The notes under the pieces were generated by a model. It was given only the letters and a program-made list of their open reading frames with translations. It ran no database searches and was not told where the DNA came from. Source: Laetmonice hystrix (lineage: Eukaryota). From it: DNA of 64,000 nt. Location of the stretch: contig OZ249436.1 in assembly GCA_965235115.1 (NCBI GenBank), positions 4,156,001 to 4,220,000 of the forward strand, given 5' to 3'. Position 1 is the first letter of the stretch. Every line of letters starts with the position of its first letter. Positions 1,113 to 60,335 of this stretch are shown piece by piece. Made by a program: the position numbers and the translations under genes.

Positions 1113-2762
1113 AATGCATGTAAAGTTCACCTGCGGACACACACAGATATCTTTCCATGGCAATGCCGTTACTGCCACCGTACATTCCGGGAGAAAGGTT
1201 CCCTGGACCGCCATCTTCGTGTCCACACTGGTAGTAAACCTTACAAGTGCAGACATTGCTTGCGATGCTTTGCTGAACATGGCACCCTCAACCGTCACCT
1301 GAAGGCAAAGAGTAAGTAGGACCTGCCCCATTTTTCAAAGGTCATTTGGTATTTGACGTTGGCATTAAGTTGGAATGAGCAAGTAGGACCTGCCCCTTTT
1401 TCAAACATTATTTGGTGTTTGACGTTGGCATTAAGTTGCAAAAGTACTCCTATACTTTCGGATAGGATATTCAGAGTTGACATGTTTCAAATATTTTGCA
1501 AAATATAGAATGCTGTATGAAAGGGTTTTGGATTGTGAAACCTAATACAAGATTCATGCTATTTCAACAATTTCTTCTGTCAGGAAGACCAAATGCTATA
1601 TTTATTTGTTCCCGTCCCTGTCTTCAGTCAGGAACAATAATTTTCTGACTCCTTTTTTGTATTTAATCGTTCCCGCTAGTTCCCTGCACCAAACAGCTCC
1701 AAGTCCTGCGGGAGAAAGGCCCACGTTCGGCTCCGAGTGGTGGCGCTGCTGATGTCAGCGCCGGCGGCGATGATGGCGCCCCCACCGGCGGGGAGGAGGA
1801 TCAGACACCCACTGTGTTGGCCGAGTTCTCCTCTATGGTCGCCCACACCCAGCAATACATTATACAGACGGACGACTCACAGGACAATGTGGTCAGCGTT
1901 CGTTTCTCTCTACATCTAAAGTTGTTTTACTAGGTCACCAGGGGGCGCCATGGTCTGACACTGTCCGCTACCTTATGTTATTTGTCGGTCACCAATAGGT
2001 AACGCCTGTATACCTGAACAGAAGGTCCATCTAATTTTTATTGACCATGGTCAGTTCTCAAAATATATATTTCTGTTAGGTGTTTTAGTATGAAAACCCC
2101 CCGTGTTTTTCCGTGGATACGAAAAAAACCAAGCAATGGATGTCTCGAAATTTAGTTATTTTCGCATGGCTTTCCTCCCCCGATATCAGCAGACTAGCAC
2201 TTGATTTGAAAAACGATTATAAAGTTGTGCGTTGCGAACGTTGTGTGTGTTTCAGCTGACGCCCAGTTACGTGATGCTGACAGCGGATGGTCAACCACAG
2301 GCCATCGAGATCCTGACAGAGGCCATGTCAGGCGACCCTAACGTCCTGCCTGGTACTGAGTACGTCCTACTCGATCAGAGCGACATTCACATGGTAACGG
2401 AAGATGGACAACCGCTCGAGCTAGGCCCAGATGACGTCAGTATCGAGGGACCTATCGCTGTGGTCCAGGCCGGGGGCGGGGACAGCGGGGAACAGCTGCT
2501 GCAGCAGCAGCAGATGGAGCAGGAGGTGACGGAGGAGGAACAGCTGGAGGCGATCACCCTGGTGGCGGAGGCGGGAGACACTGTACAACAGGCCCTGGTC
2601 GAGGCCAGGGTGGTAGAGGTTGCTGAGGAAGGGGTACAGATGGTGGAGGGAGAGGTACAGATGGTGGAGGGAGGAGAGGACATTGTGGAGCAGGTGCACA
2701 TTATCCAGCAGGCGCAGATGGTGGAGCAAGTACAGGTGGTGGAGCAGGTGGAAAACAGCTGA
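1113..2762 (+). CDS. E4F1: Transcription factor E4F1 homolog, last three coding exons (5' part outside the window)
   Basis: GT-AG exons 1113-1311, 1680-1891 and 2256-2762 splice in frame. C2H2 fingers ...CRYCHRTFREKGSLDRHLRVHTGSKPYKCRHCLRCFAEHGTLNRHLKAK/IPC, then TVLAEFSSMVAHTQQYII, match E4F1 motifs as I recall them (FREKGSL, FAEHGTLNRHL, TVLVEFSSVVADTQEYII). Acidic E/V/Q tail; TGA at 2760-2762. Confidence 0.92.
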
Positions 2763-3051
2763 TGAGACAGCAAGACACCGGTGGTGTCTCGGTGAAATGA
2801 CCTCTGACCCTGATTCAATGTCACCGTGTTTAACAGACAGGAAGGAAAGCCCAGAATTACAGTCTGTTTGCTCCAAGAAGAGCTCGAGCATATTCATGAC
2901 CCTCCCGCCCCACTCCTCCAGCGTGTCCAATTTGGGGTTTGGTGCCATTCTTGAGTGACAGGCGGTGACAGGCGGGGAGGAGGGGGCAGGTCACAGCTTA
3001 TAATGAGGCCGAGGTCAAGCTCTTCTTAGAGCGAACAGACTGTAGGATTCC

Positions 3052-3507
3052 GCTGTCAGTTAGAGACACTGACATGCTGTCAGTTAGAGACACTGACATG
3101 GTGTCAGTTAGAGACACTGACATGCTGTCAGTTAGAGACACTGACATGGTGTCAGTTAGAGACACTGACATGCTGTCAGTTAGAGACACTGACATGCTGT
3201 CAGTTAGAGACACTGACATGGTGTCAGTTAGAGACACTGACATGCTGTCAGTTAGAGACACTGACATGCTGTCAGTTAGAGACACTGACATGCTGTCAGT
3301 TAGAGACACTGACATGCTGTCAGTCAGAGACACTGACATGCTGTCAGTCAGAGACACTGACATGCTGTCAGTTAGAGACACTGACATGCTGTCAGTCAGA
3401 GACACTGACATGCTGTCAGTTAGAGACACTAACATGCTGTCAGTTAGAGACACTGACTGACATGGTGTCAGTTAGAGACACTGACATGCTGTCAGTTAGA
3501 GACACTG
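3052..3507. repeat. 24-bp doubly palindromic tandem repeat, ~19 copies
   Basis: Unit GCTGTCAGTTAGAGACACTGACAT; TGTCAGT/ACTGACA are reverse complements both within and across units. Confidence 0.97.
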
Positions 3508-4724: not shown

Positions 4725-5061
4725 GTCTGTAAATTTAATACCTGTATGCCATAGCTTGGGTTAGCAAAGACAAACTAGTCTGTAAATTTAATACCTGTAT
4801 GACATAGCTTGGGTTAGCAAAGACAAACTAGTCTGTAAATTTAATACCTGTATGCCATAGCTTGGGTTAGCAAAGACAAACTAGGTCTGTAAATTTAATA
4901 CCTGTACGCCATAGCTTGGGTTATCAAAGACAAACTAGTCTGTAAATTTAATACCTGTACGCCATAGCTTGGGTTATCAAAGACAAACTAGTCTGTAAAT
5001 TTAATACCTGTATGACATAGCTTGGGTTATCAAAGACAAAAGATCTAGTCTGTAAATTTAA
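4725..5061. repeat. 53-bp tandem repeat, ~6 copies
   Basis: Unit GTCTGTAAATTTAATACCTGTATGCCATAGCTTGGGTTAGCAAAGACAAACTA. Confidence 0.95.
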
Positions 5062-5203
5062 ACCACTTTTATTTTGTCATTTTACAAAACAAACATTCTC
5101 TGAGGAGACTTTCACTGTTTAATTCCATATAATTTGAATATTTAATGTCTGTCAATCAACGTCTGTCGCGAGAAGATCATCTGGATCTCCGGATATTGGC
5201 CGC

Positions 5204-6595: not shown

Positions 6596-9233
6596 CTAAT
6601 TTTGATCACGGAATCGTAGGGCTTGCTCTCGCACTCGCCGTTCATACTCGGACTTGTTTTGGCTGAAAAGAAAAATCAGACTTGGTTAACAATTCTTCTG
6701 ATTTTGGTGACTGAAAATATCTGAGCCAGAGGTGGTCGAGGCCAGAGGCAGAGGGTCTAGACTTCCATAAGTTAAGATTGGTATTCAGTTTATTCTGATT
6801 ATAAATTTTACCTAAAATCTTCCTCCCTAAGATATAGGGTACAGAATCCCATTCTGAATTTCTCTCCTAACAGAATTCCGTCTAGAGACAGAGTGTTAAC
6901 ACCCATGCAGATAGTTAGAGACAGTTACCTCCAGGTGGGGCTTCACAGCAGTTACTGCATGAATCAGGAAGCGACCCTTCCTCCCAAAAGCATCATAATT
7001 AAATACGATATTTTTTGGAAAAAAATAATTCTCAAACTAATGGAGAACTCCTAGTTTTGGAGGGGACTGACTCCCAGATTTTACAACTTGGAAGTCAGGC
7101 TGTAAACCCAAACAAACAAACTGCCACTTACCAGTATATTGTGTATGCCTCTGCTTGGGCTGGATCACGAATGTTGGGTTCATTGAGCAACTCTTGGATG
7201 CCAAGCAGAATCTGTCAGTAGCAGAAGGAAACATCAATTTGTCAGCATGTCATGTGATTGACTTGAAAACACCAGTTAGCATGTCACTCTGTCAACAGGA
7301 CCAGGGATGTGATTGACTTGAAAACACCTGTTAGCATGTCACTCTGCTCAACAGGACCAGGGATGTGATTGACCTGAAAACACCTGTTAGCATGTCACTC
7401 AGCTCAACAAGACCAGGGATGTGATCGACTTGAAAACACCAGTTAGCATGTCACTCTGCTCAACAGGACCAGAGATGTGATTGACTTGAAAACACCAGTT
7501 AGCACGTCACTCAGCTCAACAGGACCAGGGATGTGATCGACTTGAAAACAACTGTTAGCATGTCACTCTGTCAACAGGACCACGGATGTGATTAACTTGA
7601 AAACACCAGTTAGCATGTCACTCTGCTCAACAGGATCAGGGATGTGATTGACTTCAAAATAAAACACCTGAAAAGATTCTAGAGGGTGTTTCGGGTGAGG
7701 GTTCAGCGAAAATGTGGGTATCTTCTGGGACACCTGAGATGTCTTCTGGGGATATTATATAGCAGTTTTTCATTACCTTTTTTTTATTTTTCAGGCTACA
7801 ATCAAACTTGTACGAATACATTGTCAAAAGAAACTTTCATACTAAGTTTATTCAAAATCTTTTTTTTTTTTAACATAATAATGTCAGTTGCCATGTCATC
7901 AACTCAAATACTACAAATACAATAGGTTTTGAGGAGTTTGCGTACTGGTACCTCAAAAGTCCTCACATGTTCAGACCTGTACATCAGGCGTGACTCTCAC
8001 CTGTTTTATTGTGACAGCTGGTCGCCAATCTTTCTCCTCATCAAGTAACGACAGGCATACCGTCCCAGAGGGATACACATTAGGGTGGAACAGTGGTGGC
8101 TCAAATTTACCTGACAAAAGAAAAATGGCAGTCTGTTAACACATATCCTAAAACAATTTCAGACTTTGCTAATCTTTTGAAAGTCTGCTAATTTCAAGAA
8201 GTCAAAACTTGTCATGGGTTGACATGATCAAACATGCTTAACTCAACTGTAATTTATACTTAGTGATAGAAACCTGACTTACATTTGGGTGGTGATGATG
8301 GATAATCATCTTTGAAGATCATACGTAGTCGGTACAGCCCACCTTCCCAAGGAGTCTGTCAAGTTTATGCAGAAGAAAATGTCAAGTTTATGCAGAAGGA
8401 AATCTCTCAATACTTTTTACACTTACTTTATTCCCAGTGAGGATTCCCACTGTAAAACAACCAACTGTTTACACTCACTCTATTTAAGTTCATTCTTTGA
8501 TGTTGTTAATTTTTTTTAGGAAAGTTCTCTTTCGGATAAAAGTTAAAATATAATCCCTTTTGTTTAAGAGCACATAAAGCTGAAAATAATTAATAGAATT
8601 TGCTTATAATGTGAACCATTTACATTCACCATACTGTGGTTAGTATCACTAGTAGAACTTACCCCTTTTTTCCCTGGAATTGCACACTCCCAATTCATAA
8701 GGTTCAAGGTGCTGTCAGGGTTCCTTGTGGGTTTGGCTACAAATCCCTAGATCAAGTAAGAAAGGTAATATAGGTCAACCTCAAATAATTCAGTTGGCAC
8801 ATGTTCAAACGACTGGCATCCATTTATGATGTTCCATCATCCTCAGTCAGGCTCAGTGGGCCTCAGTTTATGTCTTTGTTCATTTACAGTACTCAATTCA
8901 CTTTAGAACTAGAAATGTTTATAACCAAAGACTTAATCCAGTTTAAGCCAGTTGATAAGCGGGATTTATAACTAGTTACTACTGGTTGCTAAAAAGTCAA
9001 CATTGGCCATCTAGATTAAATTGTCATTGAGATTAATGTCAACATGTGTTAATATAATTTATCCTGATAGTATCACTGTATATTGGTCTCACATGTCTCT
9101 TCTTATCAATTAATTTGTTCTGAAAATAAAAAGACTAATTGAAGGATTGAATGAAAAGCAGACTTACGAAAGGATGGTCCTTACGCCATGCCTTCCTCTC
9201 CTCCGATAGACGTGCAATAGCAATGCCAGACAT
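6596..9233 (-). CDS. UBE2I: SUMO-conjugating enzyme UBC9, 159 aa
   Basis: Exons 9168-9233, 8663-8746, 8283-8355, 8001-8110, 7132-7211 and 6596-6662 total 480 nt, all GT-AG. Protein [28 protein letters not shown]...[38 protein letters not shown]...QALRFRDQN; catalytic Cys intact. Confidence 0.98.
7252..7670. repeat. 55-56-bp tandem repeat, ~7 copies, in a UBE2I intron
   Basis: Unit ATGTGATTGACTTGAAAACACCAGTTAGCATGTCACTCTG(C)TCAACAGGACCAGGG; ends ~40 nt from the acceptor at 7212. Confidence 0.95.
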
Positions 9234-9783
9234 TCTTCTCCTTTCTTATAACTGCAAACAAAAAGGCAGAACCTATCTTTGATATACATAACACCAACAG
9301 GCACATGAAGTCATCTGATTTATACACCCTCATGGGTCGAGCCGGCAGGTGGGCAGCGGGGTTCTCCTGGATGGTCACCATGTAATCGACTTACAGCTAC
9401 AGTATAGAAAATGAAATTTCTATTCCGACGGCAGTCGCCAAGTGGCATTGCCATTGGCCTAGGTGTGTGGTCGCATGGATCGCCATGGCTATACTTAAGG
9501 AATAGTGAACGTTTAGGATGCCATCGTTTAGGATGCCCCTGACTGGCTGCGCCAGCCTGGGCCTCCTTGGCCTTCGTGCCCTATCCCACCGCCAACGCAT
9601 CCAAAAATTTCACTATTCCTGTTATGAAATGGCCCAACATTAACAAACAAGTAATAACAATAATTGTTACAGTTTATCATCCATAGGCCTACCATACCAT
9701 CGTCACCTACTTCTGAAACGTGAGGCATCAATGACCAAATTCCCCGCTATGTGATGCCCATGTATCTATTTGCAAGACCCTTC

Positions 9784-11968: not shown

Positions 11969-12936
11969 TCCCTGATCAGTTGTGATTTTGTGAACTTTCT
12001 GTTACTTGTGATTACATGCTTCCATGCTTTTTTTCATCCACCTTAGATTTTAGGGGCCATTTTTGGCGTCATTTTGAATTTAAATAACGTTTATATTCAT
12101 TAAATAACTGTCTTGGAACAATTAAACAATAAATAGAGTACATTTAGTTTAAGATTCAGCAGACTGCTGTGAAAAAAAATCATGGAATTTTATTTGGTAT
12201 CTGTTTTGACTCGTGACACGGCCGCCATCTTGGCCGCCATCTTGGCCGCCATCTTGGATTCGACAAAATTATGAAAGGCGAGGGGTTGACCTACTTATTA
12301 TTAAAAACCAAATTAAAATTAGACCAAAACTTTTTCAGATATCATATATTCTGTTAAAAATACAGTTTCTAGATTTCTGTAAAAGTGGGATTTCTGGTGC
12401 CATGGCTTCCACTACTTTGAATAGGCCCAGCGATCCCCTCGAGGACCCATTTTTTGACCCACTAAAATAGTCATAACTTTGTTAATAATGGTGCTAGAGA
12501 CTTCATTTAAAATCTGTAGGTCTTAGAATTGTGTGTTCTATGCACTGATAACAATAAAAAAACAGTATCTTTCCTATTTAAAAATGGCCGAAACACCCTA
12601 CTCTTAGTCTAATACTATCTAGACTAAACTCTAGTCTAATTCTTATCGCGAAAGGACGAGACCTCAGACTGTCGCCTCAAAGTCGTGGCGGCCAAATGTT
12701 TGTTATCGGCAGTCGCCGTGGAGCAAGGCGTCGAGTTGGGTTTGATCGGTCGCGTCGCGTGGGACGAGGCGATCGCTGTCGCCGAAGTGTGGCGACTGGC
12801 GTGACAGACCACCACGTCTAGCCCACCGTTCTCACAGCGGCGCAGGCAGCGCGAACCGGCAGCGCACACCGACCCAACCGGACGTCGACGATCACAAAAT
12901 AACTACGACGATTTAAACACACACTCAGACATTGGT

Positions 12937-13383
12937 ACTCACTGAGGTGACTGCACGATCTTTCCAGATAATAAAGACTCAAACTTAAGTTGAACTAACC
13001 TATTATCAGATTCAATGAGCCTTCAGCGGGAAACAAACTCAGCGAAAGTCCGTCCTGTTTATGTGAATATGGCGGAATCTCGTGGTCTTCAACGAGAATA
13101 CCACCGAGAACCAGGTTTTTGATATACTGCAGGGATCGCGCATATACAAACATTCTTCGTATGCGAACTGCACGGAAACTCATATTTTTCTAAGACAAAA
13201 TATCCATTCAGTATTCGAGCAAACTTCCCCTAAAAAATAAGTACTTTATTAAAAAAATAATTATGTATAGTCTAAAAGTAAAAAGAAGTTATCTGGTACG
13301 GTTATGAAAATGGGTCCCTATGACGTTGATTTTGATTTCTTACAAACTTTCTGTAAATAGTTGGACCAATTGCACAGCATAAC
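12937..13383. promoter_or_regulatory. Probable bidirectional promoter region for UBE2I (non-coding first exon) and RINT1
   Basis: UBE2I first coding exon has an acceptor at 9252-9254 upstream of its ATG; candidate minus-strand donor GTGAGT at 12937-12942; YY1-like ATGGCG motifs near 13068 and over the RINT1 ATG. Confidence 0.5.
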
Positions 13384-23562
<10,179 letters not shown>

Positions 23563-42476: not shown

Positions 42477-42549
42477 TGAAGCGCCCTGTATCCACCCAAA
42501 CTCCTGGCCGTACGGCGTGAAAACGCCCCCGCCGGTGCAAAGCTGAATA

Positions 42550-43993: not shown

Positions 43994-46900
43994 CTAGACT
44001 GTAAGCTTTGAACCCATCAGTGACATCTCGAGTTGGGGGTTTCCATAGTGACACGGAATGACGCGGTTTATGGTGACGGAAGTGATTGTACCGCGACCTT
44101 TTCCCCGGGTCACCTGTTCCTTCCGGAATAGAAACGTCTGCGCCGCGCGCAACAGACGCCCCCGGAAATCAGCAATGTCTGTCTGCGGAAAGAGCTGCGT
44201 CGGATTGTCTACGTCTCCGAGCACCTCTGTTCTCTCTCGTTTGTCTTTACCTCTCACTATCTGCTTATTGGTCTCATCAAACAAACGAATTCTGCGGCAT
44301 TTCGTATTCATTTCCGGTCTGAGGCCGTGGATGGTGTATGGTAGTCGAGACTCGAGGAACCCCTCGATGTGTTTCCGTTTGAGGCTGTCCATGGTGTCCG
44401 TTGCCATGGGGCGACGTTTCTTCCGGCGAACAAGAAGGCGGAAGTTTTCGATGCTGTACTTTAAATTTAACGAGTTTTTGTTTAAGGGTGGGGCGGCCCG
44501 GTCTCCTGTCGGACACGGTGGCTGCTGCTCGCCATGCGATGCTAGATTGTCTGGTTCTGAATTCAGATCGGCAAGTGTTTGCCCTTGTGAATGTCCTTCA
44601 GGTTTGGCCGGCTGAGAAACGACCTGCTGTTGATGCGCCCGTACGGACCCGTTAATTGTTCCAATGTTATAAAGTAATGCGGCCCTGTCTCCATGGACTT
44701 TCCTTGAGGCGACTTTGTCCCTCCATCCCGCCGACAAACACCTTTTGTTTGGTGACCTCCAGTGACTTTGCTCAGTATCCTCCATGGCATCGCGGTCAAC
44801 CAGAGCTCTAGATTTAGACCCCCTATAAGCCAACACTTTGGGTTCTGCTGCATTGTGAACGAGTCCCTTGGCTTGGTATCCACCTGCTAGTTCCTCCTCT
44901 GATATGACGACATGTTCTTTGGTGTCTACAGGTCGGAATGGTACAATGGAAATCTGGCTTTTGCTTGGCGCCCGTGTTGTGAGTTGCTGCCATCGCCAGG
45001 TGGTGGAGCCACCGTCGCCCTGTTCATAGCCATCTTCGCCTCTGTCATCAATAAAACGTATTATCGAATTTACCATGCTTTCGTAGGAAGGTTTGGGTTG
45101 GATCGACGTTTTTGAAGTCGTGTTGGACCCGGTCTTGCCGTCAACGAGTCTGCCATTTGTAATGAGTTTGCTTGCCATGTCTAATGGACCGCACGTGGTC
45201 AATGCCTTGGCCAGCAGACTTACCACCGAATCGCTGTGAGATACGGCGGTTAGGTCAAGGGAATGCTTTGATTTGACAAAGGACCCCTCCGAGTGTTTAC
45301 CTTGCGACAGGAATGACTTTTTAGGAACAAGGGTAAAGGACGTGGCAGAAGAACTGTCTGTTTTCAGTGAATGTTCGCGTGAAGTCGGTGAAACGGGTCG
45401 ATTCGAGGAGAACCCAGGGCTGTCGGTACGCGGGACCTGGCTGGTGGTAACAAGGGTCGATGACGTCATGCTGCTAGCCGAGTCGAGCTGTGACGATACC
45501 GCCCTGTCCACGCCGTAGTACGTGAACGTAATCTTGACATCTTCGGTGTTAAGTGTAATCACCTGAAATAAACCGTTTACAAACTGTGAGACGCACTTGC
45601 CTTTAATACGCATACATTGTTGTGATAGTTTTAAGGAAATTAAATTTGAATTTTCAATTATAAAGTCAGTGAGTATGAACAATTGAACATAAATTAATTA
45701 CAAGTAAAAGAATGACAGGACCACTAGGGTCTAGGCCTATTATAGAAGCGGCGAATCCCGAATTTGGGTGTTTTGAAATAATAGGCCTATTGACCATTTT
45801 TAGACAGACTATTTCCTCTAATGCATGTTACATCAGGCATCAAATTGAAACACCATTTAGGGCTATATAAAGGAACAATCAAGTCTAACAAAAAAAACAA
45901 CAATGGCCAAAGCTCTGTCAACCGGAAGTTGCGCACACAGAGACCGGAAATAGGCTACACATTGTCGATTCACCCGTTTGAAAAAATTCTAAGATTCGTC
46001 CCAAGGTCTGATTCGGCCCCAGTTCGCCCCTTCGAGACATTTTATGTTGGGTCATTCGCCTTTCTGTATTTTGTAAATTTTCTTATTGGGGGGGGGGGGG
46101 GGGGTCTAAGCGATAGAAAAATGAATATAAAGTGTCATACAAGGTATAGGGGCTATAGCCGATAGTTATTGAGTACCGTAATTTTCTCTCGAGGGCGAAT
46201 CCACAATAGTTAGGCTAGGCCTAGATCTATGGTTGAGGACAGTTCCCCTCTAGTCTATAAATGCGACGCGAAACGCGAAATCCGTTCAGTTAAGACCAGT
46301 TCGACAAGTTGAGTGGTCACAGTGAATCTAGACTTACTAAGTTAGCTATTCAGATTTTTAAACCCAGAAATATATTTTGACAAGTTGGCTCTCTTTGTTA
46401 ATGACTATAGATTTAGCCTAAGCCTACTCCAGTTTTCAGGAAGAAAGAATGATTACCCTATAGCCTATACTAATAGACAGATCTATGCTATGTTTGTATC
46501 TATTTTTGTAGACTTACATTATTATCCTCTTTGAGAACAGTCTGGTAGCAGGGGATCTGGCATGTGTCGAAGCGTCCAACTTTATGCGTGTTCAGGTATC
46601 CGGCGTCTGAGAGTAAATAAAGATTCTCCACAAACTGGTCGAGTAGTTCACCTTCACAGACGCGCAGTGAGCTGCAGTCCTGCCACTCATCCGAATACAG
46701 GAACGACCAGAAGCTACCTACCGTGTCAAATGAGGACAAACAATCTATTTTAACACATCTAATTTTTTTTAAACACAGCAGACAGAATCATATGCAACTA
46801 TAAATGTAAGTCTATAAATGCAGCCAAGGGTGTAGCAAGGGGAGGTTCGAGGTTGCCTGGACCCCCCCCCCCAGCCCCATAAAAAAAAGTAATAGATAAT

Positions 46901-47247
46901 TAAATAACTAAATAAATGAATGACTATAATATTATGGTTGGGACCCCCCCCCCCCCCATCTCAGTTGGAACCCCCCTCCCAGAGCTGTCACAAAGACACT
47001 GAAAACACTTACTTTCATTAAATGTACGGATTTGGAGAGGAAGGTCCCTATCGTAGCGCTCACATCGAACTTCAGACTGCAGTCGCTCCAAAGTACTGTA
47101 TGCAAACAGTTTTAAGAAGCGAATGTCATCGCGCAGGTCGGCATTCCTCTCTAGATTCGGATGGAGATCGAAGCGTACCCCCTTCTTACGGAACTTTATG
47201 TAATTCTTTATCTTGATGTACGAAATGTTCCGCTTATCATTGTTCAT
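43994..47247 (-). CDS. Uncharacterised protein, ~667 aa, 3 exons
   Basis: Exons 47013-47247, 46518-46717 and 43994-45562 total 2004 nt, joined in frame by GTAAGT donors and AG acceptors; ATG in ACCATG context. ~165-aa ordered-looking N-terminus, then an S/T-rich and basic region. Start codon not certain. Confidence 0.78.
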
Positions 47248-47743
47248 GGTACTTTTTGGGAGCAGGTCATTATCTTGGAGCGACTCTGTCTTATGGTTGT
47301 CATAGTAAACGTCACAATTAATAATCTACCTCTATTACGTCATACAATCAACACGATATGACACGTCACAGTATCTTTATTCATTGTCCGTCTTGTCTTT
47401 AGAAATGATTAATCTACAAACTCATAATAATTAGTCATAATAAAGGAGGATATATCTGCATGCCCACGATCCTCTCGAGAATGAAACCATTGAGCATCTG
47501 GATGAGACTCCCATCAACATCTGTTCTCTGATGAGGCATGAGGCCGATAGTTTAGTTGGAGCCCAATGTAGATTTTTAAAGGCCACTACTCGTTCGTCAG
47601 GGTTTGACTGCGCATGCTCACAGGACCATCGAAGTTGTTTACATCATGGCGGCGGTTGTTACAGAGGATTGAAGGCACGTTTGAAGGCAAAACACATGCC
47701 TAAAACACGTCTATAACATGAACAAATAGATCTAATAATAAGT
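47248..47743. promoter_or_regulatory. Probable bidirectional promoter between the uncharacterised gene and LRRC49
   Basis: Divergent ATGs ~500 bp apart; X-box-like GTTGTCATAGTAAAC at 47296-47310; NRF1-like TGCGCATGCTCA near 47609; YY1-like CATGGCGGC near 47645. Confidence 0.6.
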
Positions 47744-50700
47744 ATGTATCAGTACAACAAACAAAGGAGTAGGGCGACCATTTCGCCAAAAGATGTAAGT
47801 ATTCTGGTTCTATGTCTGTCGCCTTTGGCAGGTCAGTCGGTGGGGACTACCCTCGAAGAGTGAAGACGGTAACGTTAGTGAACGAGGCCCGCTGCCAGTG
47901 CGAGCTGTCAGTCACTGCCGCAGTGGCTGCAGCGCCAGACCGCGAAACGAACCGTGAACATGAAAAGTTGAACTAAAGCCAGTAAAGGCTTGACTTGACA
48001 TGGTCTCGTCATGGCCTGGCCCTGCCTGTAACGACCTTCCAGTATGTGACCAGCAAGTGCAGCCTGGAGCAGGGCCGAGGGGGTGTTTCTCACTTCTGGC
48101 CGCTCACTTCTGACGTTCTGTTTGTATCCCTCAGCCAGACCCAGGGTAAAAAAAGGGAGGAGGGCGCCCTTACCACTGTTTCCCACTTGATGTGGCCCCC
48201 TACTAACAGGGAGTACGTTAGCGGTCGCCACGCTCGCAAACGCGAATACCTACCGCTTGTGGCGAGGTCCACTGCCAAAATAAACCAACAAATTCGCCAC
48301 GCGTGCGAATTCCACTATCCCCCAGTTTATAGCCCAGGTATCCCCCGGGAGTGCCGTTTCTCTCAAAGCCCGCACGGCTCATCCGCCACATGTATTGACT
48401 CTGGGTGGAGCACTGTGTGTAGGTGTCACATGTAGGTGATCAGGGACCATGGTGACCGATCCACACAGCCCGGTCACTGCGCCAGGCCAGGGTACCACAT
48501 ACGCACTGCCCAGGTCGCCGACCTCAGTGCTGGCCCGTCACCCCTTGGCCATGGCCCTCACTCCTCATGTGCTGGGAGAGGCCAGGTGATACCAGGTCAC
48601 ATGGCATGAAGGTGGGGAGTCAGCTCGGCCCGCTTAATATGGGGTGGGGTCGGGGTTGTTAGGGGGGATCGCCGCAATAAGGGGTATATAGCCTAGGTAT
48701 GGTACCCCTCAATGTGGGCCGGGCCCCTACTGAGACATCCCGATATTCTTGCCGAGAGGGCCACTTGTGTAGAGTTATCCTAGCTCTAGACAGCTCATTC
48801 CTTTAAAGAAAACTGTCACTACACACAGGCAGCAAATGACAGCGAATGAAAGTACCTTTCTTTTAAGAAACAGCAAACACTTTATAATATACAGAGAAAT
48901 TAATATAATCTAAATAAAAAAAAAACAACATTTCCTTAACAATACTGTGGCTAAAACTTTTTCCATGTGGCGAGTTCTTTTCCTCAGTTGTTAGCCACTG
49001 TGGCTAAGACCCAAAATTCACTAGTGTGCTCCCTGACTAAAGTACTACGGGTGTACTACCATGGTTGACTATGAGTATGACTGTGTGTAGACCATGTAGA
49101 CCATATGGACAGTCGTAGTGTAGAGAGTCTGATGTAGTACCGTAATAGAACTGACTAGGCATAGGTGTAGAGAGTCTTAATGTAGTACAGAACTAGGCAT
49201 AGAACTAGAAGAAGTGTCGACTGTCGTTGCCATTACGTTAAGATTAGGCATAGCCGTAAAGTACTTCTATTAAACTGAGGCAGTATTGCATGACACCATT
49301 AGATGAGTACCAGTTGTGACTGTCCATCGTCTCACTCATACTCGTACGTCGTAGATCATTATGTGGATATGATGCCGGCAAAGCTCATATTCATCATGTC
49401 ATATTCTCATATTACTGCAAGTACCAGGCCAAGGGTTACTAGGGTTTACACGTACTAGGCTTGAAGATCTGTCCTGTGTTAACGTCCCTATTGAAAATAT
49501 AGGTTTGAAAGATCATATGACTAACAAATGATAGATCATGAAACTCATCTTGATGAACTTTGAACTGGAACTAATCTACATGTATGCTGAAACGTTTATA
49601 GTACCGGTATTTCATGAAAGTGACAAAATGTTTAACAAATCCTCAGTGACACCATTACATACTTCAAAACAAAGTCAAACTCAAAAGTCAAAGGTAGGAT
49701 TCATGCTGTAGTTATTTTCTGTGTTGTTTTCCATCCTGTATCTGCTGTGTTCAACCCGTCCTTTTTGTTTTAGAGTGAAGGTGCACAACATCACACATAA
49801 AAAGCATGATATTAAGTGGTAGATGATTTATATTTGGTGTTTAAATATTTTTATAAAGTAATTATTTATTTTTCACAAGGGTGAAGTATAATTTAAGAGT
49901 GAGTGTAACATATTGTGAAGCTTACCAGTGTATATTATTTAATTTTGTTACTTTCACCATTTTTTCAATCTATGATTTGGCTCAGTCAACATAAAGTGTG
50001 ATTTGTTGTTGATCTGAATATTCTCAATGCACTCTTGAAATTTGCCCTGCCCTCTCCCACAAACAGTTATGATGTAAAAATATAGAGACCTGTAGAAAAA
50101 AAGTTGATATGACTCATCGGTATAATTCTCTCTCTGAGGTTATATAATGTTTAAGATCATGATGAGTAAAAATTTTCAGTTTCTTGAAGAGTGAGTCAGT
50201 TTCATTTGAGTTGGAGTTTAAACTTTGATATTTTAATTTACAGGGCCTCATGTTTGGACCACAGTTCAGCCTTCAAGCATCTGCAACCACTGTTTGTGAG
50301 CGTCCCCTGAAGCAGGTACAACCTTGGATTAGTCTCGTGCCTGCTGCTTTTCAGGGCACTTGAATCTAAGTGAATCTTAATAATATTGGCAATGTATGCT
50401 TTGGAACAGTGATAAATTTCAATGTAAACCCTTTTGTTGTTACCCCTATAGGGAGTGAAAATAACGTCACAATCTTGTTGGATTTTGCCAGTTCCTGGAA
50501 TACGCCGCTTGGCGGCAATGGTTAAAGTAATGTACCAAATCTTACAACATCCCCCACCAGGCCTACTGCAATTATCAGACCTTGCCGTTTGACGGGCGCG
50601 ATCGCGCTTGCGCCCCCTAAGCGCCCCCAAAATCTGTTTCAGAAGCGCTGTTTATCGCGCCCCTCAACTTCACTGACTGACGTGAATTTATTTGTTCCTC

Positions 50701-53700
50701 AACCATGTCTGAGGCAACCTCAAAAACGCTGTCTGTCTCCTCCTTGTCCCCCAGTCATTAATGAGTCAATCATTTCTGAGACGGCTCCTAGGACCTCTTT
50801 AGGCAGCCTATGCCAAACCTTATAAACTACCCTGAGTTTACCTGGAAATACCCAAACGTGGGACAGGAACGATTTCTAGGGGAGTGATTTAGCTCTCCTC
50901 GAATAACCAAGGAGAGTGATAGATCACTCCCCTAAAGATTTCAAACGGCAAGCACTGAATTATTGATTTCCAACTTTGTACACATCATTTCTGTCACTGC
51001 ATGATAAACTTAAAGGCCGCCGTTCACCGATAAACAATTGTTTGTTCGGCGTTTTGATCACTGCACACAAGCGGATTTTTGCTCGTGAACAAAATGTTCG
51101 TGAACAAATGTTCATCATCTGCGGCGGCCTTCAGTCTAAATCTAGCCTCAAAATATTTATAACTCTGCTTATTTTTTCACGTGCGGTGATTCTCCTATGT
51201 TTAAAACTCTGTGCTATTCCCCGGAAGTGGCTCTGTTCCACCCATTATCATACCACATACCACAGGACGACGTCACTTTCACTCCCTATTGAAGTTAGTC
51301 TGTCCTCCATGTTTGGTAAAATTCTCCAAACTCCTAGTGAAGTTACATACCAAAAACTTGAGTACCGTTTTGAGTTTAACTTGAGTTTGCTGGTGTTTTC
51401 CCAGATGCTGTCTGGCACTAAGGAGGCCCAGCCATACCAGAGAAGTGATGTATCTGCTCCCAGCCCCACTATGAGGAAGATATTGAGTAGTCAGTCGAGT
51501 GACGGTGGACAGTTGAACAGTGCTGCTTCTTCAGGTAAGTTTGTTACAGCAAAAATATCCTAACACAGATTTCGCTTGACTGAATTTTGTACATAATGTA
51601 AAGAGGCACAGAATAAACTGCAAATAATTCTTGCTGTGGAAGTTATCCCTATTAAATGTTAAAGTAAGATGTCATGACATCTTGAATTCATCTCATTGAG
51701 TGTGAATGAGTATAATAGTAAACTTGAATTGGAATGGTAATTTTGTCTACAGCTAGCTCAGGAAGACCTGGTGAGTTAGGGTACTCGTCATATAGCAGTC
51801 TGGTAAAATACTGTAAAAAAATCTACAGGCCACTTAGTCCCCACTTCACAGGAGTAACAAATTCTTGATTAACATTTCCTCCGGCGTTGGCTCATTTGAT
51901 ACTAGCTGACCTGGTTTGGAAATACTGCCAGCTTGTTTGGTCCTTTGATCCATGCTAGTTACACCATCTGGCATAAGTCCAACACCCAAAACTTTGTCCT
52001 TTGTGTCCTCCACATGTTGCTCCACATGTCTCATGTTGTTAGGTCCTGTTCACTGAGATGAGGGTCTTGCCAGTCGTAAACTTTCTTTCATTGTCAATGT
52101 AGCAAAAGTAAATTATTACCGGTAAGTGACTATTGGCAAGCATACACTTAAGTAGGTAGAGTTCTAAACCAGTCAGTACTTCGGGAACATTCCATTTACA
52201 TGTGACGATTATGACTGGTTTAGATCGGCATGAAATTTTAAATCGTGTTCACCTCTTCCTGTTTAGACCCCAGTGTAAATTACAACAATACTTGACCCAT
52301 GTGGTAAATATTCGCTAAAGCTGTTACAACAATACTTGACCCATGTGGTAAATATTCGCTAAAGCTGTTACAACAATACTTCACCCATGTGGTAAATATT
52401 CGCTAAAGCTGTTACAACAATACTTCACCCATGTGGTAAATATTCGCTAAAGCTGTTACAACAATACTTCACCCATGTGGTAAATATTCGCTAAAGCTGT
52501 TACAACAATACTTTACCCATGTGGTAAATATTCGCTAAAGCTGTACTTACTCCACAGGTTCCAGCAGAGGAATGGTTCTCACCACGACACGGGGTAAACA
52601 CTGTTGACGTACATGTTGTTAGACCTACTTTACAGTTTACCCACACTGTTGGGCGTTAGGCCCGTTCTTTCTCAAGCACTGGTGAAGTGAAGAGCATGCC
52701 TTTAATCCCTCACCTTCTTTTTCGTCCTTCAAAGTTTGATTGTTCCGTGAATGCAAATTACAAAATTGGAAAATTTTATTGGTCTAGATTTTTTCACTTA
52801 AATGGTGAAGACCAAAGTCGTGTGGTGTGCAGAGATTTCATTATTATTTCATGGATGCAGGAAACAAAAGAAATTAATGATTACATGTCTGATCAGCAGT
52901 TGGCCTTGTCAAAATTATCATGTCAAATTCTGTGACAAGAGCCCAGCTACGGTAATTTTAATTAAATTAAGAAACCTCTATATATTAAATTTATATAATC
53001 CTTTGATGTGTACTGTCATGTTCAAAGTTACTCTAACTTTAACAACATCCAAAAACACTTTGTAATTTGTAATTTGAGGCTGAGCATCCTAACTTCTTGT
53101 TTCCTGTGTACATGTAGTTTGGTACCTGTCCAAGCCACCAGTCTGCATGTATCCCACCCCACACTCTGAGCGTCAGTTTGAGTCGCCGAGGCACGTACAA
53201 TGTACTTGGTGTTGTGTTGTTGTCGTCCCCACAGACCGCCTCCAACCTTCCTCAGCCGGTTCCTCATCCTGCTCCTCCATCACCCAGCACTCCTACCTGA
53301 GGGACAGGCGACACCTGGCCACGGCCTTCGCTCAGGACCTGAGCTACTCGGACGTTCAGGGTCAGTCGGTGCAGTCGGGTCACTCGGTGCAGTCGGGTCA
53401 CTCGGTACACGACGACCAGCGGGACCGTGTCCAGCACAATGCTGGCCGCGTCCGGAGAGTCCCTGTCTACCTCCCAGGTATACCACCAGGTGGAGCCCCT
53501 GTCCCTCACCACTCGGTTATGGTCAGACGTGCGTGAGGCAAAGAAAAGTAAATAAGGGTTATGAAAGAAGCCACACTTCCGCAGATTTCAAGCCCCTTTC
53601 CAAATCCCCCTTTTTTCACCCTCTCGGTTCATATTGCACACAGTTTAATGAATGACTTCCATGTTAAGGCACAGTGCATACAACTTCTCCTGTTCGCTCA

Positions 53701-56700
53701 GTCAGTGTTTTTAAGTAACCATTTATTATGCTCCATACTATGCTCTTTTGTCTTTACACCGAGGACACCATGGTGTTGGGTACCGTTTACAATCTTAGAT
53801 AAAATTAATGTCACAGAAAGTTGAATTTACTCAGTACTTTTGTTAAAAATGACCATAGATTGAGGTTTACAAGAACTGAGCACATTTGTCCTTGCTCATG
53901 CATCCTGACCTGTAGAAAGTAAAGATTTCATTTGATGAATGAAAAATAATCTTCGACTCATTTAGCAAACTGCACATATCTTTGATGGTTTGACCATGTA
54001 GTTAAAGATTACTTCTCTATTCCCGTCCGCATACTGCCGTCTGTTTAAGGACGCTCAGTTTATACAGTTTGACAAGTAGACAGAATGACAAGATGAGTGG
54101 CCACTGTTGTAGGTGATCGTGTCGTGTTTGCTGAGAGTCCCACGTCACCAGGTATACCTGTCGTATACAGGACTCAGGAGGAGCGAGCAGCCAACCCAGA
54201 TAGATTAAATCTCGACAGGTAAACTCACTCCTACTGTGTGCTTCTAAACTACCGTTATCTCGTCACTACCTGTTGTAGTCATACTTCAATTCTTTCTCAT
54301 AAAACTGTTAATACGTTAATAGAAACGGTTATTATAGGATTGTATTACTTTCTGTGACCAACGAGCATTCAAGGTCTGAGGTGACTAGTGAGAAAAACTC
54401 TATGACATGTAGTCGGATTAGTGTATTTTTTAGCCACCAGGGGGACAATGGCAGTGAAGGAAGTGATCAACTGATATTAGTATATATGTGTACCGCCAGG
54501 TGGACAATGGTAGGATGAACTGCTATATTAGTGTTTCTGTTTACCACCAGGCGGAGGCTAACAGTCTGCCCCCTACTGGAAGGCGAGGAACAACTGCGGC
54601 TGTTGAATTACCAGCACAACATGATATCCAGTATTGACCATCTCCATGGCCTCAAACGCCTCATCTTCCTTGATCTCTATGACAACCAGATCGACTGTAT
54701 CTCAGGACTGGATGCACTCAAGTCCCTGCGTGTTCTTATGCTGGGCAAGAACAGGTAAATTGGTCAATGGAAGTCGAGGCACTTAACATGAAATCTGCTT
54801 TCAATTTTTTTTAATTTTTTTTTATTGAGCATCTTTAAACAGGATTACCTACTCGGCTGAGAGCCGTCATGAAAGCGGGGTCCTGTAATCACATCATCCG
54901 ACATATGTACATGTTTTAAATTACACGATAAGATTGAAAGTCAAAAGTGAATACAATCTAGGGATTAAAAATAAGCATATTGAGATCACAGAAAACTAAC
55001 ACTACATCACACCATATATCACAGAGAACTAACACTACATCACACCATATATCACAGAAAAACTAACACTACATCACACCATATATCACAGAAAAACTAA
55101 CACTACATCACACCATATATCACAGAAAAACTAACACTACATCACACCATATATCACAGAAAAACTAACACTACATCACACCATATATCACAGAAAAACT
55201 AACACTACATCACACCATATATCACAGAAAAACTAACACTACATCACACCATATATCACAGAAAAACTAACACTACATCACACCATATATCACAGAAAAA
55301 CTAACACTACATCACACCATATATCACAGAAAACTAACACTACATCACACCATATATCACAGAAAACTAACACTACATCACACCCTATATCACAGAAAAC
55401 TAACACTACATCACACCATATATCACAGAAAACTAACACTACATCACACCATATATCACAGAAAACTAACACTACATCACACCATATATCATATACTTCA
55501 AACAAATGAGTTCAAAGTGTGCCACAGTATCACAGTTACTTCTGTTGGTCGATTCACCAGGAGTTCCTCTCTATGTTATTTTCTGATAGAAACATTTTTA
55601 TGGAATAAGTTTTGATTAGTTTTTTGAAGTAGTCATATTGATTAATGTTTCTTATGTGTGGTAGGAGGTGCTTCCATAACATCGGTTTGGTATAACAGTT
55701 GGACTTTTTAAATAATTCAGATTTGGGTAATGAGACATGTAATGGGACATGTAATGGGACATCGTGGGTTCTAGTTCGGATGTCTCTGTTGTCCATTTGT
55801 ACCTGTCTTTCTATTATCTCGTTAAAGGTGATTCCATGGTATGAGGATGTCTGTCATTTAGTACGAATTAGGTTTAACTTCTTCCACCATATATTTGCTC
55901 CTACTATTTTCAACAGAATCCGACGGATTGAACATCTTGAGGCCCTTACTAAGTTGGATGTCCTTGACCTTCATGGCAATAAGGTGTGTAGCATGCATCA
56001 ACACACTCTAAAAACAGATTGGTTGCCAAGATATTGGTTGAATTGATCAACCAATATTGATTGAAATGTGTCCAACCAATCTGGAATGGTTGGACACATT
56101 TCAATCAATATTGGTTAATTTAACCACATGTGTTTTTAGAGTGCACATGTTCACCAGAAACATCTAGTGTTTATCTGTTTGGAGTGTACGATTGGAGTGT
56201 ATTGTGGGGTATATATCTGATTGGAGTGTCGTGTGGGTATATCTGATTGGAGTGTATTGTGGGGTATATATCTGATTGGAGTGTCGTGTGGGTATATCTG
56301 ATTGGAGTGTATTGTGGGGTATATATCTGATTGGAGTGTCGTGTGGGTATATCTGTTTGGAGTGTATTGTGGGGTATATATCTGATTGGAGTGTCGTGTC
56401 GGGTATATATCTGATTGGAGTGTCGTGTGGGGTATATATATCTAATTGGAGTGTCGTGTGGGGTATATATCTGTTTGGAGTGTATTGTGGGGTATATATC
56501 TGATTGGAGTGTCGTGTAGGGTATATATCTGATTGGAGTGTATTGTGTGGTATATATCTGATTGGAGTGTCATGTGGGTATGTCTGATTGGAGTGTATTG
56601 TGGGGTATATATCTGATTGGAGTGTCATGTGGGTATATCTGACTGGAGTGTATTGTGTGGTATATATCTGATTGGAGTGTATTGTGGGGTGTATCTGTTT

Positions 56701-59700
56701 GGAGTGTATTGTGGGGTATATATCTGATTGGAGTGTATTGTGGGGTATATATCTGTTTGGAGTGTATTGTGGGGTATATATCTGATTGGAGTGTATTGTG
56801 GGGTGTATCTGTTTGGAGTGTATTGTGGGGTATATATCTGACTGGAGTGTATTGTGGGGTATATATCTGATTGGAGTGTATTGTGGGGTATATATCTGAC
56901 TGGAGTGTATTGTGGGGTATATATCTGATTAGAATGTATTGTGGGGTATTTATCTGATTAGAATGTATTGTGGGGTATATATCTGATTGGAGTGTATTGT
57001 GGGGTATATATCTAATTGGAGTGTATTGTGGGGTATATATCTGTTTGGAGTGTATTGTGGGGTATATATCTGTTTGGAGTGTATTGTGGGGTATATATCT
57101 GTTTGGAGTGTATTGTGGGGTATATATCTGTTTGGAGTGTATTGTGGGGTATATATCTAATTGGAGTGTATTGTGGGGTATATATCTGTTTGGAGTGTAT
57201 TGTGGGGTATATATCTGATTGGAGTGTATTGTGGGGTATATGTCTGACTGGAGTGTATTGTGGGTTATATATCTGTTTGGAGTGTATTGTGGGGTATATA
57301 TCTGACTGGAGTGTATTGTAGGGTATATATATATCTGATTGAAGGTGTATTGTGGGGTATATATCTGACTGGAGTGTATTGTGTATGATTGGAGTGTATT
57401 GTGGGGTATATAGATATCTGATTGGAATGTATTGTGGGGTATATATCTGACTGGAGTGTATTGTGGGGTATATGTCTGACTGGAGTGTATTGTGGGGTAT
57501 ATATCTGATTGGAGTGTATTGTGGGGTATATATCTGATTGGAGTGTATTGTGGGTATATATCTGATTGGAGTGTATTGTGGGGTATATATCTGACTGGAG
57601 TGTATTGTGTGGTATATATCTGATTGGAGTGTATTGTGTGGTATATGTCTGACTGGAGTGTATTGTGTGGTATATATCTGATTGGAGTGTATTGTGGGGT
57701 ATATATCTGATTGGAGTGTATTGTGGGGTATATATCTGATTGGAGTGTATTGTGGGGTATATATCTGATTGAGTGTATTGTAGGGTATATATCTGATTGG
57801 AGTGTATTGTGGGGTATATATCTGATTGAGTGTATTGTAGGGTATATATCTGATTGGAGTGTATTGTGGGGTATATATCTGATTGGAGTGTATTGTGGGG
57901 TATATATCTGATTGGAGTGTATTGTGGGTATATATCTGACTGGAGTGTATTGTGGGGTATATGTCTGACTGGAGTGTATTGTGGGGTATATATCTGATTG
58001 GAGTGTATTGTGGGGTATATATCTGATTGGAGTGTATTGTGGGGTATATATCTGATTGGAGTGTATTGTGGGGTATATATCTGATTGGAGTGTATTGTGG
58101 GGTATATATCTGATTGGAGTGTATTGTGGGGTATATATCTGATTGGAGTGTATTGTGGGGTATATATCTGATTGGAGTGTATTGTGGGGTATATGTCTGA
58201 CTGGAGTGTATTGTGGGGTATATATCTGATTGGAGTGTATTGTGGGGTATATATCTGATTGGAGTGTATTGTGGGTATATATCTGATTGGAGTGTATTGT
58301 GGGGTATATATCTGACTGGAGTGTATTGTGTGGTATATATCTGATTGGAGTGTATTGTGTGGTATATGTCTGACTGGAGTGTATTGTGTGGTATATATCT
58401 GATTGGAGTGTATTGTGGGGTGTATATCTGACTGGAGTGTATTGTGGGGTATATATCTGTTTGGAGTGTATTGTGGGGTATATATCTGATTGGAGTGTAT
58501 TGTGGGGTATATATCTGTTTGGAGTGTATTGTGGGGTGTATATCTGATTGGAGTGTCGTGTGGGGTATATATCTGATTGGAGTGTATTGTGGGGTATATA
58601 TCTGATTGGAGTGTATTGTGGGGTATATATCTGACTGGAGTGTCGTGTAGGGTATATATCTAATTGGAGTGTCGTGTGGGGTATATATCTGATTGGAGTG
58701 TATTGTGGGGTATATATCTGATTGGAGTGTATTGTGGGGTATATATCTGATTGGAGTGTATTGTGGGGTATATATCTGATTGGAGTGTATTGTGGGGTAT
58801 ATATCTGTTTGGAGTGTATTGTGTGGTATATATCTGATTGGAGTGTATTGTGGGGTATATATCTGTTTGGAGTGTATTGTGGGGTATATATCTGATTGGA
58901 GTGTCGTGTGGGGTATATATCTGACTGGAGTGTATTGTGGGGTCTATATCTGATTGGAGTGTATTGTGGGGTCTATATCTGATTGGAGTGGTAATGATGT
59001 GCTAGACTGACCCTGTAATGATGTGCCAGGCTGACACCGTAATGATGTGCTAGACTGACCCTGTAATGATGTGCCAGGCTGACACCGTAATGATGTGCTA
59101 GACTGACCCTGTAATGATGTGCCAGGCTGACACCGTAATGATGTGCTGGACTGACCCTGGAATAATGTGCTAGACTAACTAGACTCGTCATGTACGAGAC
59201 TGACACTGTAATGATGTGCTAAACTGACAAGACTCTGACTCATCATGTGCTGAACTGACTGTAATTATGTGATTTGTGTTGACAGATCAGTCAGGTAGAG
59301 CACCTATCTCACCTGTCAGAGTTGAGGGTTCTGGACTGACTAGACTCTGTCTCGTCATGTGCTGGACTGACTGTAATGATGTGATTTGTGTTGACAGATC
59401 AGTCAGGTAGAGCACCTATCTCACCTGTCAGAGTTGAGGGTTCTGGACTGACTAGACTCTGTCTCGTCATGTGCTGGACTGACTGTAATGATGTGATTTG
59501 TGTTGACAGATCAGTCAGGTAGAGCACCTATCTCACCTGTCAGAGTTGAGGGTTCTGGACTGACTAGACTCGTCATGTGCTGGACTGACTGTAATTATGT
59601 GATTTGTGTTGACAGATCAGTCAGGTAGAGCACCTATCTCACCTGTCAGAGTTGAGGGTTCTGGACTGACTAGACTCTGTCTCGTCATGTGCTGGACTGA

Positions 59701-60335
59701 CTGTAATTATGTGATTTGTGTTGACAGATCAGTCAGGTAGAGCACCTATCTCACCTGTCAGAGTTGAGGGTTCTGGACTGACTAGACTCTGTCTCGTCAT
59801 GTGCTGAACTGACTGTAATTATGTGATTTGTGTTGACAGATCAGTCAGGTAGAGCACCTATCTCACCTGTCAGAGTTGAGGGTTCTCAATCTGGCCGGGA
59901 ATAACATAGAAAACGTGGACAACTTGTCCGGAATGGAAGCTCTCACCGAACTCAACCTCAGACGCAATCGCATTCGTACCCTGGTAAATATCTTACATTT
60001 GTGGCAATTGAACAAAATAAGCTATTTTTCCTGAGACTATAAATGGTTAAATTACAATAGATATAAAGGATATAAAGACTTGAAATGGTGAAAGCATGGG
60101 TTGAGTGTCTCCAATAGAAAGTGAACTGTTTACATTATGATTCTACCCAATATTATTGATTCTGGTATTCCGGAAGTGCTAATGCAAAAAGAAAGTTGCG
60201 ATTAAAGTTAAATGTGGAGATGTAAGTGTTTATTATTTCTGTAGACTGGATCTGTATTGTTTACACCTTGTAGAACGATGTTGACAACTTGCCAAGTCTA
60301 CAACGCCTTTTCCTGAGCTTCAACGAGATTGCTTG
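47744..60335 (+). CDS. LRRC49: Leucine-rich repeat protein 49 (tubulin polyglutamylase complex subunit), 5' part; continues beyond the window
   Basis: Exons 47744-47794, 50244-50315, 51405-51534, 51753-51770, 52558-52593, 53235-53477, 54113-54218, 54551-54754, 55917-55983, 59840-59983 and 60274-60335 are phase-consistent. PDRLNLDRRRLTVCPLLEGEEQLRLLNYQHN...LDLYDNQI...LRVLMLGKNRI...LDVLDLHGNKI...LRVLNLAGN...LQRLFLSFNEI. The first five exons are less certain. Confidence 0.92.
50576..50957. mobile_element. MITE with 17-bp imperfect TIRs and a 6-bp target duplication
   Basis: AATTAT|CAGACCTTGCCGTTTGA ... TCAAACGGCAAGCACTG|AATTAT; internal hairpin ~50877-50934. Confidence 0.7.
51014..51130. mobile_element. 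Small MITE-like element, possibly PIF/Harbinger-like
   Basis: TAA|AGGCCGCCG ... CGGCGGCCT|TCA. Confidence 0.5.
52280..52543. repeat. 44-bp tandem repeat, 6 copies, ending 14 nt before an LRRC49 microexon
   Basis: Unit TTACAACAATACTTSACCCATGTGGTAAATATTCGCTAAAGCTG. Confidence 0.96.
54985..55491. repeat. 33-34-bp tandem repeat, ~15 copies
   Basis: Unit ATCACAGAAAA(A)CTAACACTACATCACACCATAT. Confidence 0.96.
56004..56143. mobile_element. 140-bp CMC/EnSpm-like MITE
   Basis: CA|CACTCTAAAAACA ... TGTTTTTAGAGTG|CA (2-bp duplication, CACT termini); long internal palindrome centred near 56082. Confidence 0.8.
56171..58990. repeat. 29-bp satellite, ~95 copies, in an LRRC49 intron
   Basis: Unit ATCTGATTGGAGTGTATTGTGGGGTATAT. 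Confidence 0.98.
58991..59225. repeat. 24-bp repeat arranged as alternating A/B dimers (48 bp)
   Basis: GTAATGATGTGCTAGACTGACCCT alternating with GTAATGATGTGCCAGGCTGACACC. Confidence 0.9.
59223..59886 (+). repeat. ~112-bp tandem array of an LRRC49 splice acceptor plus exon start, 6 copies
   Basis: GTGATTTGTGTTGACAG|ATCAGTCAGGTAGAGCACC...GAGGGTTCT with AG ending at 59285, 59397, 59509, 59615, 59727 and 59839; only the last continues into the full exon. Confidence 0.97.

Follow-up and report, generated by a model that had tools for sequence, protein, structure and literature searches.

We think it likely that the tandem arrays in this window, a stretch of 64,000 bases, are locally born minisatellites, a fraction of them mirages, which start at microhomology, multiply chiefly near chromosome ends and pass through a splicing filter. 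The arrays are real and of a kind already known, here found in a probable annelid. The window-wide tendency for duplications to begin or end at splice sites, noted in an initial annotation, would then stem largely from a regional activity of repeats in introns that are short. The geometry of short introns accounts for about two thirds of the overlap between arrays and exon-intron junctions, and two genes near contig ends drive the rest.

Host and genes of the window

The window comprises positions 4,156,001-4,220,000 of contig C1 and lies 4.2 Mb from one end of this 73.8-Mb contig, in an assembly of 627 Mb in 35 contigs. Its host is probably an annelid, judging by mitochondrial gene order and by the grouping of LRRC49. 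A mitochondrial stretch carries nad3-nad2-cox1-cox2-atp8-cox3 on a single strand (names read from the translations, with Pfam for cox1 only), and the accessible text of PMC7889199 gives the block cox1-cox2-atp8-cox3 as part of the annelid ground pattern. LRRC49 clusters with Capitella at 92/93, a support under the tool's starred threshold, and RINT1 shares only 50-54% identity with Branchiostoma. Amphioxus, suggested at first as the host, is rejected on these data.

The arrays are spread over four genes, as had been described. The first is a C2H2 zinc-finger gene, presumably E4F1-like, of which the last three coding exons were modelled (1113-2762, plus strand). The second has six coding exons (6596-9251, minus strand; Pfam UQ_con) and is UBE2I/Ubc9, assuming that the name Ubc9, which we took from its translation, is right. 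RINT1 follows with 14 modelled exons and a homologue match (13386-23562, plus strand), and LRRC49, assigned by homology, runs past the end of the window (47744-64000, plus strand). Exon models come from spliced alignment or manual work, with GT/AG and open frame checked. All 30 modelled introns of the window are GT-AG with an open frame; four LRRC49 exons within 51405-53477 are based on frame and splice signals only. The modelled exons fit together in frame and agree with homologues, and neither a gained intron nor a gained exon turned up in the window.

Several other features were seen in passing. The RINT1 intron 15412-16120 (plus strand) has the donor GTATCCTT, of U12-type (minor spliceosome) by what we take to be the U12 consensus, and a CCTTGAC branch-like motif 9 nt upstream of its AG. 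Ubc9 and RINT1 stand head to head (12200-13386), with a possible non-coding first Ubc9 exon ending near 12945 (minus strand). At 31162-32676 (minus strand), an iduronate-2-sulfatase-like gene is apparently free of introns and has a single in-frame stop, in its first third. Its best matches are about 35% identical and mostly unnamed or bacterial, the top named animal being Paralvinella, and a search for a close relative found none; it may be a retrocopy, a pseudogene or a product of horizontal transfer. A probable gene of three exons, the last of them long (567-aa open frame), lies at 43994-47500 (minus strand), head to head with LRRC49; a Pfam search of it gave no match. By eye, two inverted related pairs (36600-37400/38400-38800 and 38780-39420/41880-42480) resemble nested non-autonomous DNA transposons.

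Arrays at and near splice sites

All arrays named in the initial annotation are present in the sequence. Of the eight cases that it placed at splice sites, four hold a junction, three end 1-13 nt before an acceptor, and one lies 40 nt off. The junction is inside the unit in the arrays at 1310, 15118 and 59223, in a decayed array at 54416, and in 29 further cases outside the window. The arrays at 7252, 8357, 18686 and 52280 do not span a junction and are ordinary intronic arrays near acceptors.

In the zinc-finger gene, a 66-bp unit in 1.9 copies (1310-1438, plus strand) is duplicated across a donor with 2 exon and 64 intron nt. It starts 2 nt inside the exon, the donor being at 1312, and the second copy has GC instead of GT. 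In RINT1, a 67-bp unit in 2.5 copies (15118-15285, plus strand; 12 exon nt per unit) crosses the acceptor of the exon starting at 15274 and leaves two decoy AGs upstream; contigs of the runs X1 and X2 end inside this array, at 15147 and 15256. LRRC49 carries a 112-bp unit in six copies (59223-59886, plus strand; 65 intron and 47 exon nt) across the acceptor of the exon starting at 59840, with five intact decoy AGs. At 59284-59297 and its five repeats (plus strand) there is an AG/GT 9 nt past each acceptor in the unit, and a decoy copy could in principle make an in-frame 9-nt microexon with a weak donor. The same gene holds a decayed triplicate of an acceptor and the first exon bases (about 54416-54555, plus strand; exon start 54551). 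In this triplicate, which falls under the default TRF threshold, 30 of 38 columns agree, and its score of 41 compares with at most 29 among 1000 shuffles.

The junction-free arrays near acceptors differ in how close they come. In Ubc9, a 56-bp intronic array of 7.3 copies (7252-7659, minus strand) lies upstream of the acceptor of exon 7211-7132, its end 40 nt away, and is not a splice-site array. A 23-bp stretch of pyrimidine tract, present twice (8357-8403, minus strand) at the acceptor of Ubc9 exon 8355-8283, falls 1 nt short of the last base of the intron. Over 8198-8802, the contigs of three runs differ: that of X1 has 605 letters and no gaps, that of X2 has 582 letters and 23 gap letters, and that of X3 has 604 letters. 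This suggests a presence/absence polymorphism of the 23-bp duplication, with which the gap is identified by its size. In RINT1, a 26-bp unit in 144 copies (18686-22412, plus strand; exon start 22414) fills an intron of 3872 nt that collapses to 184 nt, and it too stops 1 nt short of the intron's last base. An AG-free terminal zone in this array is not convincing, with YAG in 66 of 136 units and absent from the last three. The 44-bp array of six copies in LRRC49 (52280-52544, plus strand) stops 13 nt before a candidate 36-nt exon (52558-52593), which is in frame and without homology support.

Other arrays are junction-free counter-examples. A 29-bp unit in 97 copies, together with 24/48-bp arrays (56190-59219, plus strand), occupies the same LRRC49 intron as the array at 59223, which measures 3856 nt and collapses to 397 nt, and a 34-bp unit in 15 copies lies mid-intron (54985-55491, plus strand). 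A 271-bp duplication in two copies (23486-24084, plus strand) takes in the end of the last RINT1 coding exon, the stop codon and a nested 29-bp array that begins about 18 nt past the stop; no splice site is involved.

About a quarter of the window had been estimated to be arrayed. By our count, arrays with a period of at least 10 cover 17,901 of 64,000 bases (28%), but only 6 of the 34 come to within 15 nt of any modelled splice site. Each unit was said to derive from local sequence, and this is borne out: in a whole-genome search that scores best candidates only, all four units tried match their own array only, the unit at 59223 matching just its own six copies.

Placement of arrays compared with chance

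As an array grows by whole units, its ends mark where the single-unit seed lay before expansion. In our null, each array is collapsed to one unit (or a unit plus a fraction), and seeds are placed randomly wherever they overlap the intron. A naive null, in which whole present-day arrays are dropped into present-day introns, yields huge enrichment (6 against 0.9 expected; 34 against 10.5); we discarded it, since the growth of an array starts from a single unit. The proposal that expansions are stopped at exons fails for a related reason, as whole-unit growth leaves the outer ends at the seed position.

The TRF enrichment test suggested for the whole genome was run on 211 introns outside the window, holding 95 arrays: 205 introns from 17 of the 18 dynein heavy-chain genes found, on 12 contigs, and six LRRC49 introns in the 20 kb downstream of the window. 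Together with the 12 arrays in the window's 30 introns, the pooled set has 107 arrays in 241 introns. Extensions went chiefly to genes that showed arrays (C18, C13a, C6a, C7, C10), so that the pool is weighted to array-rich genes. Introns beside exons that could not be fixed were left out ahead of the count; this removed C13a past the 18th exon of its model, whatever precedes the first exon retained in C18, sections of C2, C6a, C10, C12 and C19, and the ends of loci. The median length of array-free introns is 210 nt. In C13 (L034 and L040, about 1.139-1.156 Mb), the dynein model ends after the 18th exon and four arrays with 407-bp units follow over about 15 kb; the break may be a very long intron, a broken gene or a misassembly.

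Of the 12 arrays in the window's introns, 3 cross a junction, where 2.5-2.9 are expected. Six lie within 15 nt of a splice site (3.3-3.7 expected, p 0.07-0.11), and for acceptors alone the count is 5 against 1.7-1.8 (p 0.015-0.024, post hoc). Outside the window, 29 of 95 arrays span a junction (18.6-21.0 expected, p 0.0008-0.012), which gives 32 of 107 in the pool against 21-24. Spanning is marked among arrays of at least six copies (20 of 50 against 11.5-12.9) and at the expected level among two-copy arrays, where power is low (4 of 29 against 3.8-4.4; at a lower threshold, 3 of 43 against 3.5).

Acceptors carry most of what is left. Outside the window, 24 of 95 arrays lie within 30 nt of an acceptor or across it (16.3 expected, p 0.016), and 20 do so for donors (16.3 expected, p 0.16), which show no consistent excess in the placement tests. 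When TRF is run at four settings and seeds are defined in two ways, observed over expected at acceptors is 1.34-1.49, with p 0.006-0.066 and lower bounds of 0.88-1.05 when bootstrapped by locus; as several cut-offs were tried, the effect is modest and borderline. The test thus finds a modest acceptor excess on top of what is mostly chance geometry. Array ends distributed as by random placement in short introns had been named as the outcome that would speak against a special process, and this is mostly what we see, the acceptor residue aside.

It is possible, if somewhat doubtful, that there is no positional bias at all, and that the residue comes from multiple cut-offs and from the null itself, in which later insertions and decayed repeats would inflate ancestral lengths. 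The p values drift between 0.006 and 0.07 with TRF settings and seed definition, and without C18 and C13a, the two near-end genes, the spanning excess in the pool is no longer significant (12 of 65 against 9.5-10.8). The difference between acceptors and donors (29 against 21 within 30 nt) is also unconvincing. However, the acceptor excess persists in introns that collapse to less than 700 nt (28 of 59 within 30 nt, 17.0 expected). It persists as well under a splice-feasible null with lengths capped at 210 nt (16 against 7.9, p 0.002), and a mistaken intron length would lift both ends alike.

A mutational bias by which duplications break at the 3' ends of introns or the edges of exons is, in our judgement, unlikely. 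It could act through transcription- or splicing-coupled breaks, through nucleosome edges, or through meiotic repair synthesis that slips at the border between a conserved exon and a divergent intron allele. Equally unlikely is the more specific claim that small tandem duplications arise preferentially at intron 3' ends, at up to about twice splice-compatible chance, via a link between splicing signals or edges of allelic homology and germ-line DNA repair. Such a preference would perhaps extend to other highly polymorphic marine invertebrates (lancelets, sea urchins). Beside the outside acceptor excess, this reading draws on the acceptor-side count once the two richest genes are set aside (16 of 65, 8.0 expected, p 0.001; the subset includes the window) and on the null from which splice-incompatible placements are removed (acceptors 17 against 7.1, p 0.0002; 32 spanning against 17.4). 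Allelic contigs in genic regions differ by about 1-2%, and the 163 bases at 13178-13340, just upstream of the RINT1 start codon, have 19 listed allelic differences. Against it stand the chance rate at which two-copy arrays span junctions and the bootstrap lower bounds. In addition, the 95 outside seeds have a mean relative position of 0.53, with no shift (p 0.43), and 75 of the 107 arrays have no contact with exon. A mutational process favouring exon boundaries, one of two alternatives offered by the initial annotation, is needless for most arrays, though it may account for the residual 1.3-1.5-fold acceptor excess. The other alternative, a general local duplication process with a selection filter and a decoy-tolerant spliceosome, fits the data.

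Junction-spanning units and their decoys

The 32 spanning units (17 acceptor and 15 donor) are 19-165 bp long and contain 1-81 nt of exon, in no fixed register to AG or GT. Their composition is skewed. The exon share is at most 55% in 29 of 32, with 3 above it against 9.4-13.4 expected. At least 24 intron nt are present in 15 of 17 acceptor units (fewer in 2, against 7.9 expected, p 0.0003), and fewer than 15 intron nt occur in 2 of 15 donor units (6.1 expected, p 0.018). The 24 or more intron nt of acceptor units are what one would expect if the last copy has to carry a branch point and a pyrimidine tract itself. The make-up of the surviving units points to a splicing filter, presumably through selection.

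In the decoys, AG or GT is intact in 261 of 294 copies, where a neutral rate predicts 264, although copies in one array share mutations and the 294 are not independent events. By type, 113 of 131 acceptor copies (117.8 expected) and 148 of 163 donor copies (146.5 expected) are intact. Purging of decoys was looked for in these 294 copies and not found, and neither was a preference for in-frame length among the 32 spanning units, 10 of which are a multiple of 3. Decay at a neutral rate and 10 of 32 in frame together give no sign of purging or of use. In 20 arrays, polarity of divergence along the array was not found, the signs being mixed.

That the decoys are functional, as ladders of alternative sites, in recursive splicing or in tuning expression through nonsense-mediated decay, is very improbable. 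Most are intact, and the length of the human ABCA7 array can change splicing, according to the available part of PMC5954066. However, they are intact only at the neutral rate and show no in-frame preference, each unit is private to its locus, and one duplication is apparently present in some runs and absent from others. Least credible is that the arrays are assembly artefacts: copy numbers are indeed those of the assembly, and contigs of the runs X1 and X2 break in the 67-bp array, but copies differ from each other (75-100% TRF copy matches within arrays), decayed arrays exist, and an independent contig, from run X1, carries the 23-bp duplication gap-free.

Proposed origin, growth and persistence of the arrays

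We return to locally born minisatellites that are amplified regionally and filtered by splicing. Microhomology of at least 3 nt flanks 10 of 33 clean arrays, against a background of 5-7% (p 6e-5). Arrays of at least six copies number 43 in 44.4 kb of collapsed intron up to 5 Mb from a contig end and 7 in 62.5 kb further in, or 0.97 against 0.11 per kb, a density about nine times higher (three near-end loci against fifteen). Array density falls with distance from the contig end (rho -0.50, p 0.03, 18 loci), and 5 of the 18 loci are free of arrays. GC-richer units have higher copy numbers (rho 0.33, p 5e-4), and interior arrays of at least six copies exceed the GC content of the intron around them by 5 points (p 0.007). 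Human minisatellites are subtelomeric and linked to recombination, and the distribution of arrays here is similar.

An array would be born when a stretch of 10-200 bp is doubled in place, often at a microhomology of 1-4 nt as the flanks suggest, perhaps by slippage or microhomology-mediated repair. Unequal exchange or slippage may then multiply the units while the ends stay at the seed position, and this growth would be stronger near chromosome ends and for GC-richer units, as the correlations indicate. With ancestral introns of about 200 nt, roughly one seed in five is predicted to cross a junction by chance. Only duplications that leave a complete site beside the full exon would persist, consistent with the skew in unit composition. 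By analogy with amphioxus and human F7, the spliceosome would pick the site at the intact exon and ignore the copies, which would then decay neutrally, as the decoy counts suggest. Such tolerance is not complete in every case: a decoy donor is used in ABCA7, and the proximal duplicated site was used in early globin constructs.

For the remaining acceptor excess, the most likely cause is persistence near a zone that does not tolerate deletion. Beside the branch point and pyrimidine tract, deletions that remove an array would be purged and duplications tolerated. A higher supply of microhomology at acceptors was looked for and not found; as the background is no higher there, the persistence step is unproven. 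Further results count against our explanation. The excess grows under the splice-feasible null, and seeds weighted by GC (weights from interior arrays) absorb the donor part (15 against 12.4) and leave the acceptor part (17 against 7.9). Two-copy arrays also lean toward acceptors (7 of 29 within 30 nt, 3.4 expected, p 0.03; low power), and a mutational bias would give the same.

Comparison with known systems

The initial annotation put the arrays forward as a candidate for an undescribed system, but such arrays are known as amphioxus mirages and as junction VNTRs of human F7 and ABCA7. In a dedicated, splice-site-targeted system, most arrays would sit at junctions or in a fixed register, and we find 32 of 107 spanning. 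Our literature search met no genome-wide enrichment test and no report from an annelid, a weak negative as most subscription papers fall outside its coverage.

Amphioxus mirage minisatellites have been described in Adh3, troponin C, the globins BflGb6 and BflGb9 and PGBD5 (accessible parts of PMC3087553 and PMC3902484). The PGBD5 and troponin C cases were added by Pavelitz et al. 2013 (PMC3902484), Ebner et al. being the other amphioxus source, and RT-PCR in amphioxus suggests that splicing is normal (PMC3087553, same part). As here, the unit joins an intron end to the adjoining exon start or end, donor and acceptor types occur, and arrays are locus-specific. Units of 10-160 bp there compare with 19-165 bp here, and AG or GT is kept in many copies. 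The amphioxus arrays belong to a cephalochordate and ours to an annelid. They were described in single genes, in the text available, whereas we count 32 cases in 241 introns against a null, and somatic instability and splicing were examined there, whereas our arrays are known from DNA sequence alone. Reed and Maniatis (1986) reportedly dealt with duplicated splice sites.

In intron 7 of human F7, the first unit of a 37-bp VNTR spans the exon-intron boundary, and experiments showed that the most upstream donor is chosen while the identical downstream donors are silent; early globin constructs, as discussed in the same source, used the proximal duplicated site (available part of PMC1557585). The unit across the boundary is shared with our arrays. 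F7 is one donor-type locus with experiments, unlike our set, read from sequence, in which acceptor types are as common (17 against 15). The 25-bp VNTR in intron 18 of human ABCA7 has a decoy donor used at a low level, and its length affects disease risk (PMC5954066, in part). It begins at a donor and inflates a short intron many-fold, comparable to the RINT1 intron that went from 184 to 3872 nt, whereas decoy use and the effect on disease risk are features of ABCA7.

The Rogers model of intron gain through duplicated AG/GT proto-splice sites (summarised in the accessible part of PMC3087553) starts from the same raw material, intragenic tandem duplication with splice signals, and differs in the gained intron or exon that it predicts. 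A genome with many natural ladders of identical splice sites would offer a test bed for 3' splice-site choice and for intron creation by duplication. If the acceptor excess were proved mutational, gene architecture would be tied to where insertions arise. Taken together, what this window and its sample add to the known systems is a measured null, under which junction clustering comes mostly from short introns, units filtered for a complete acceptor, decoys that are not purged, and a concentration of arrays near chromosome ends.
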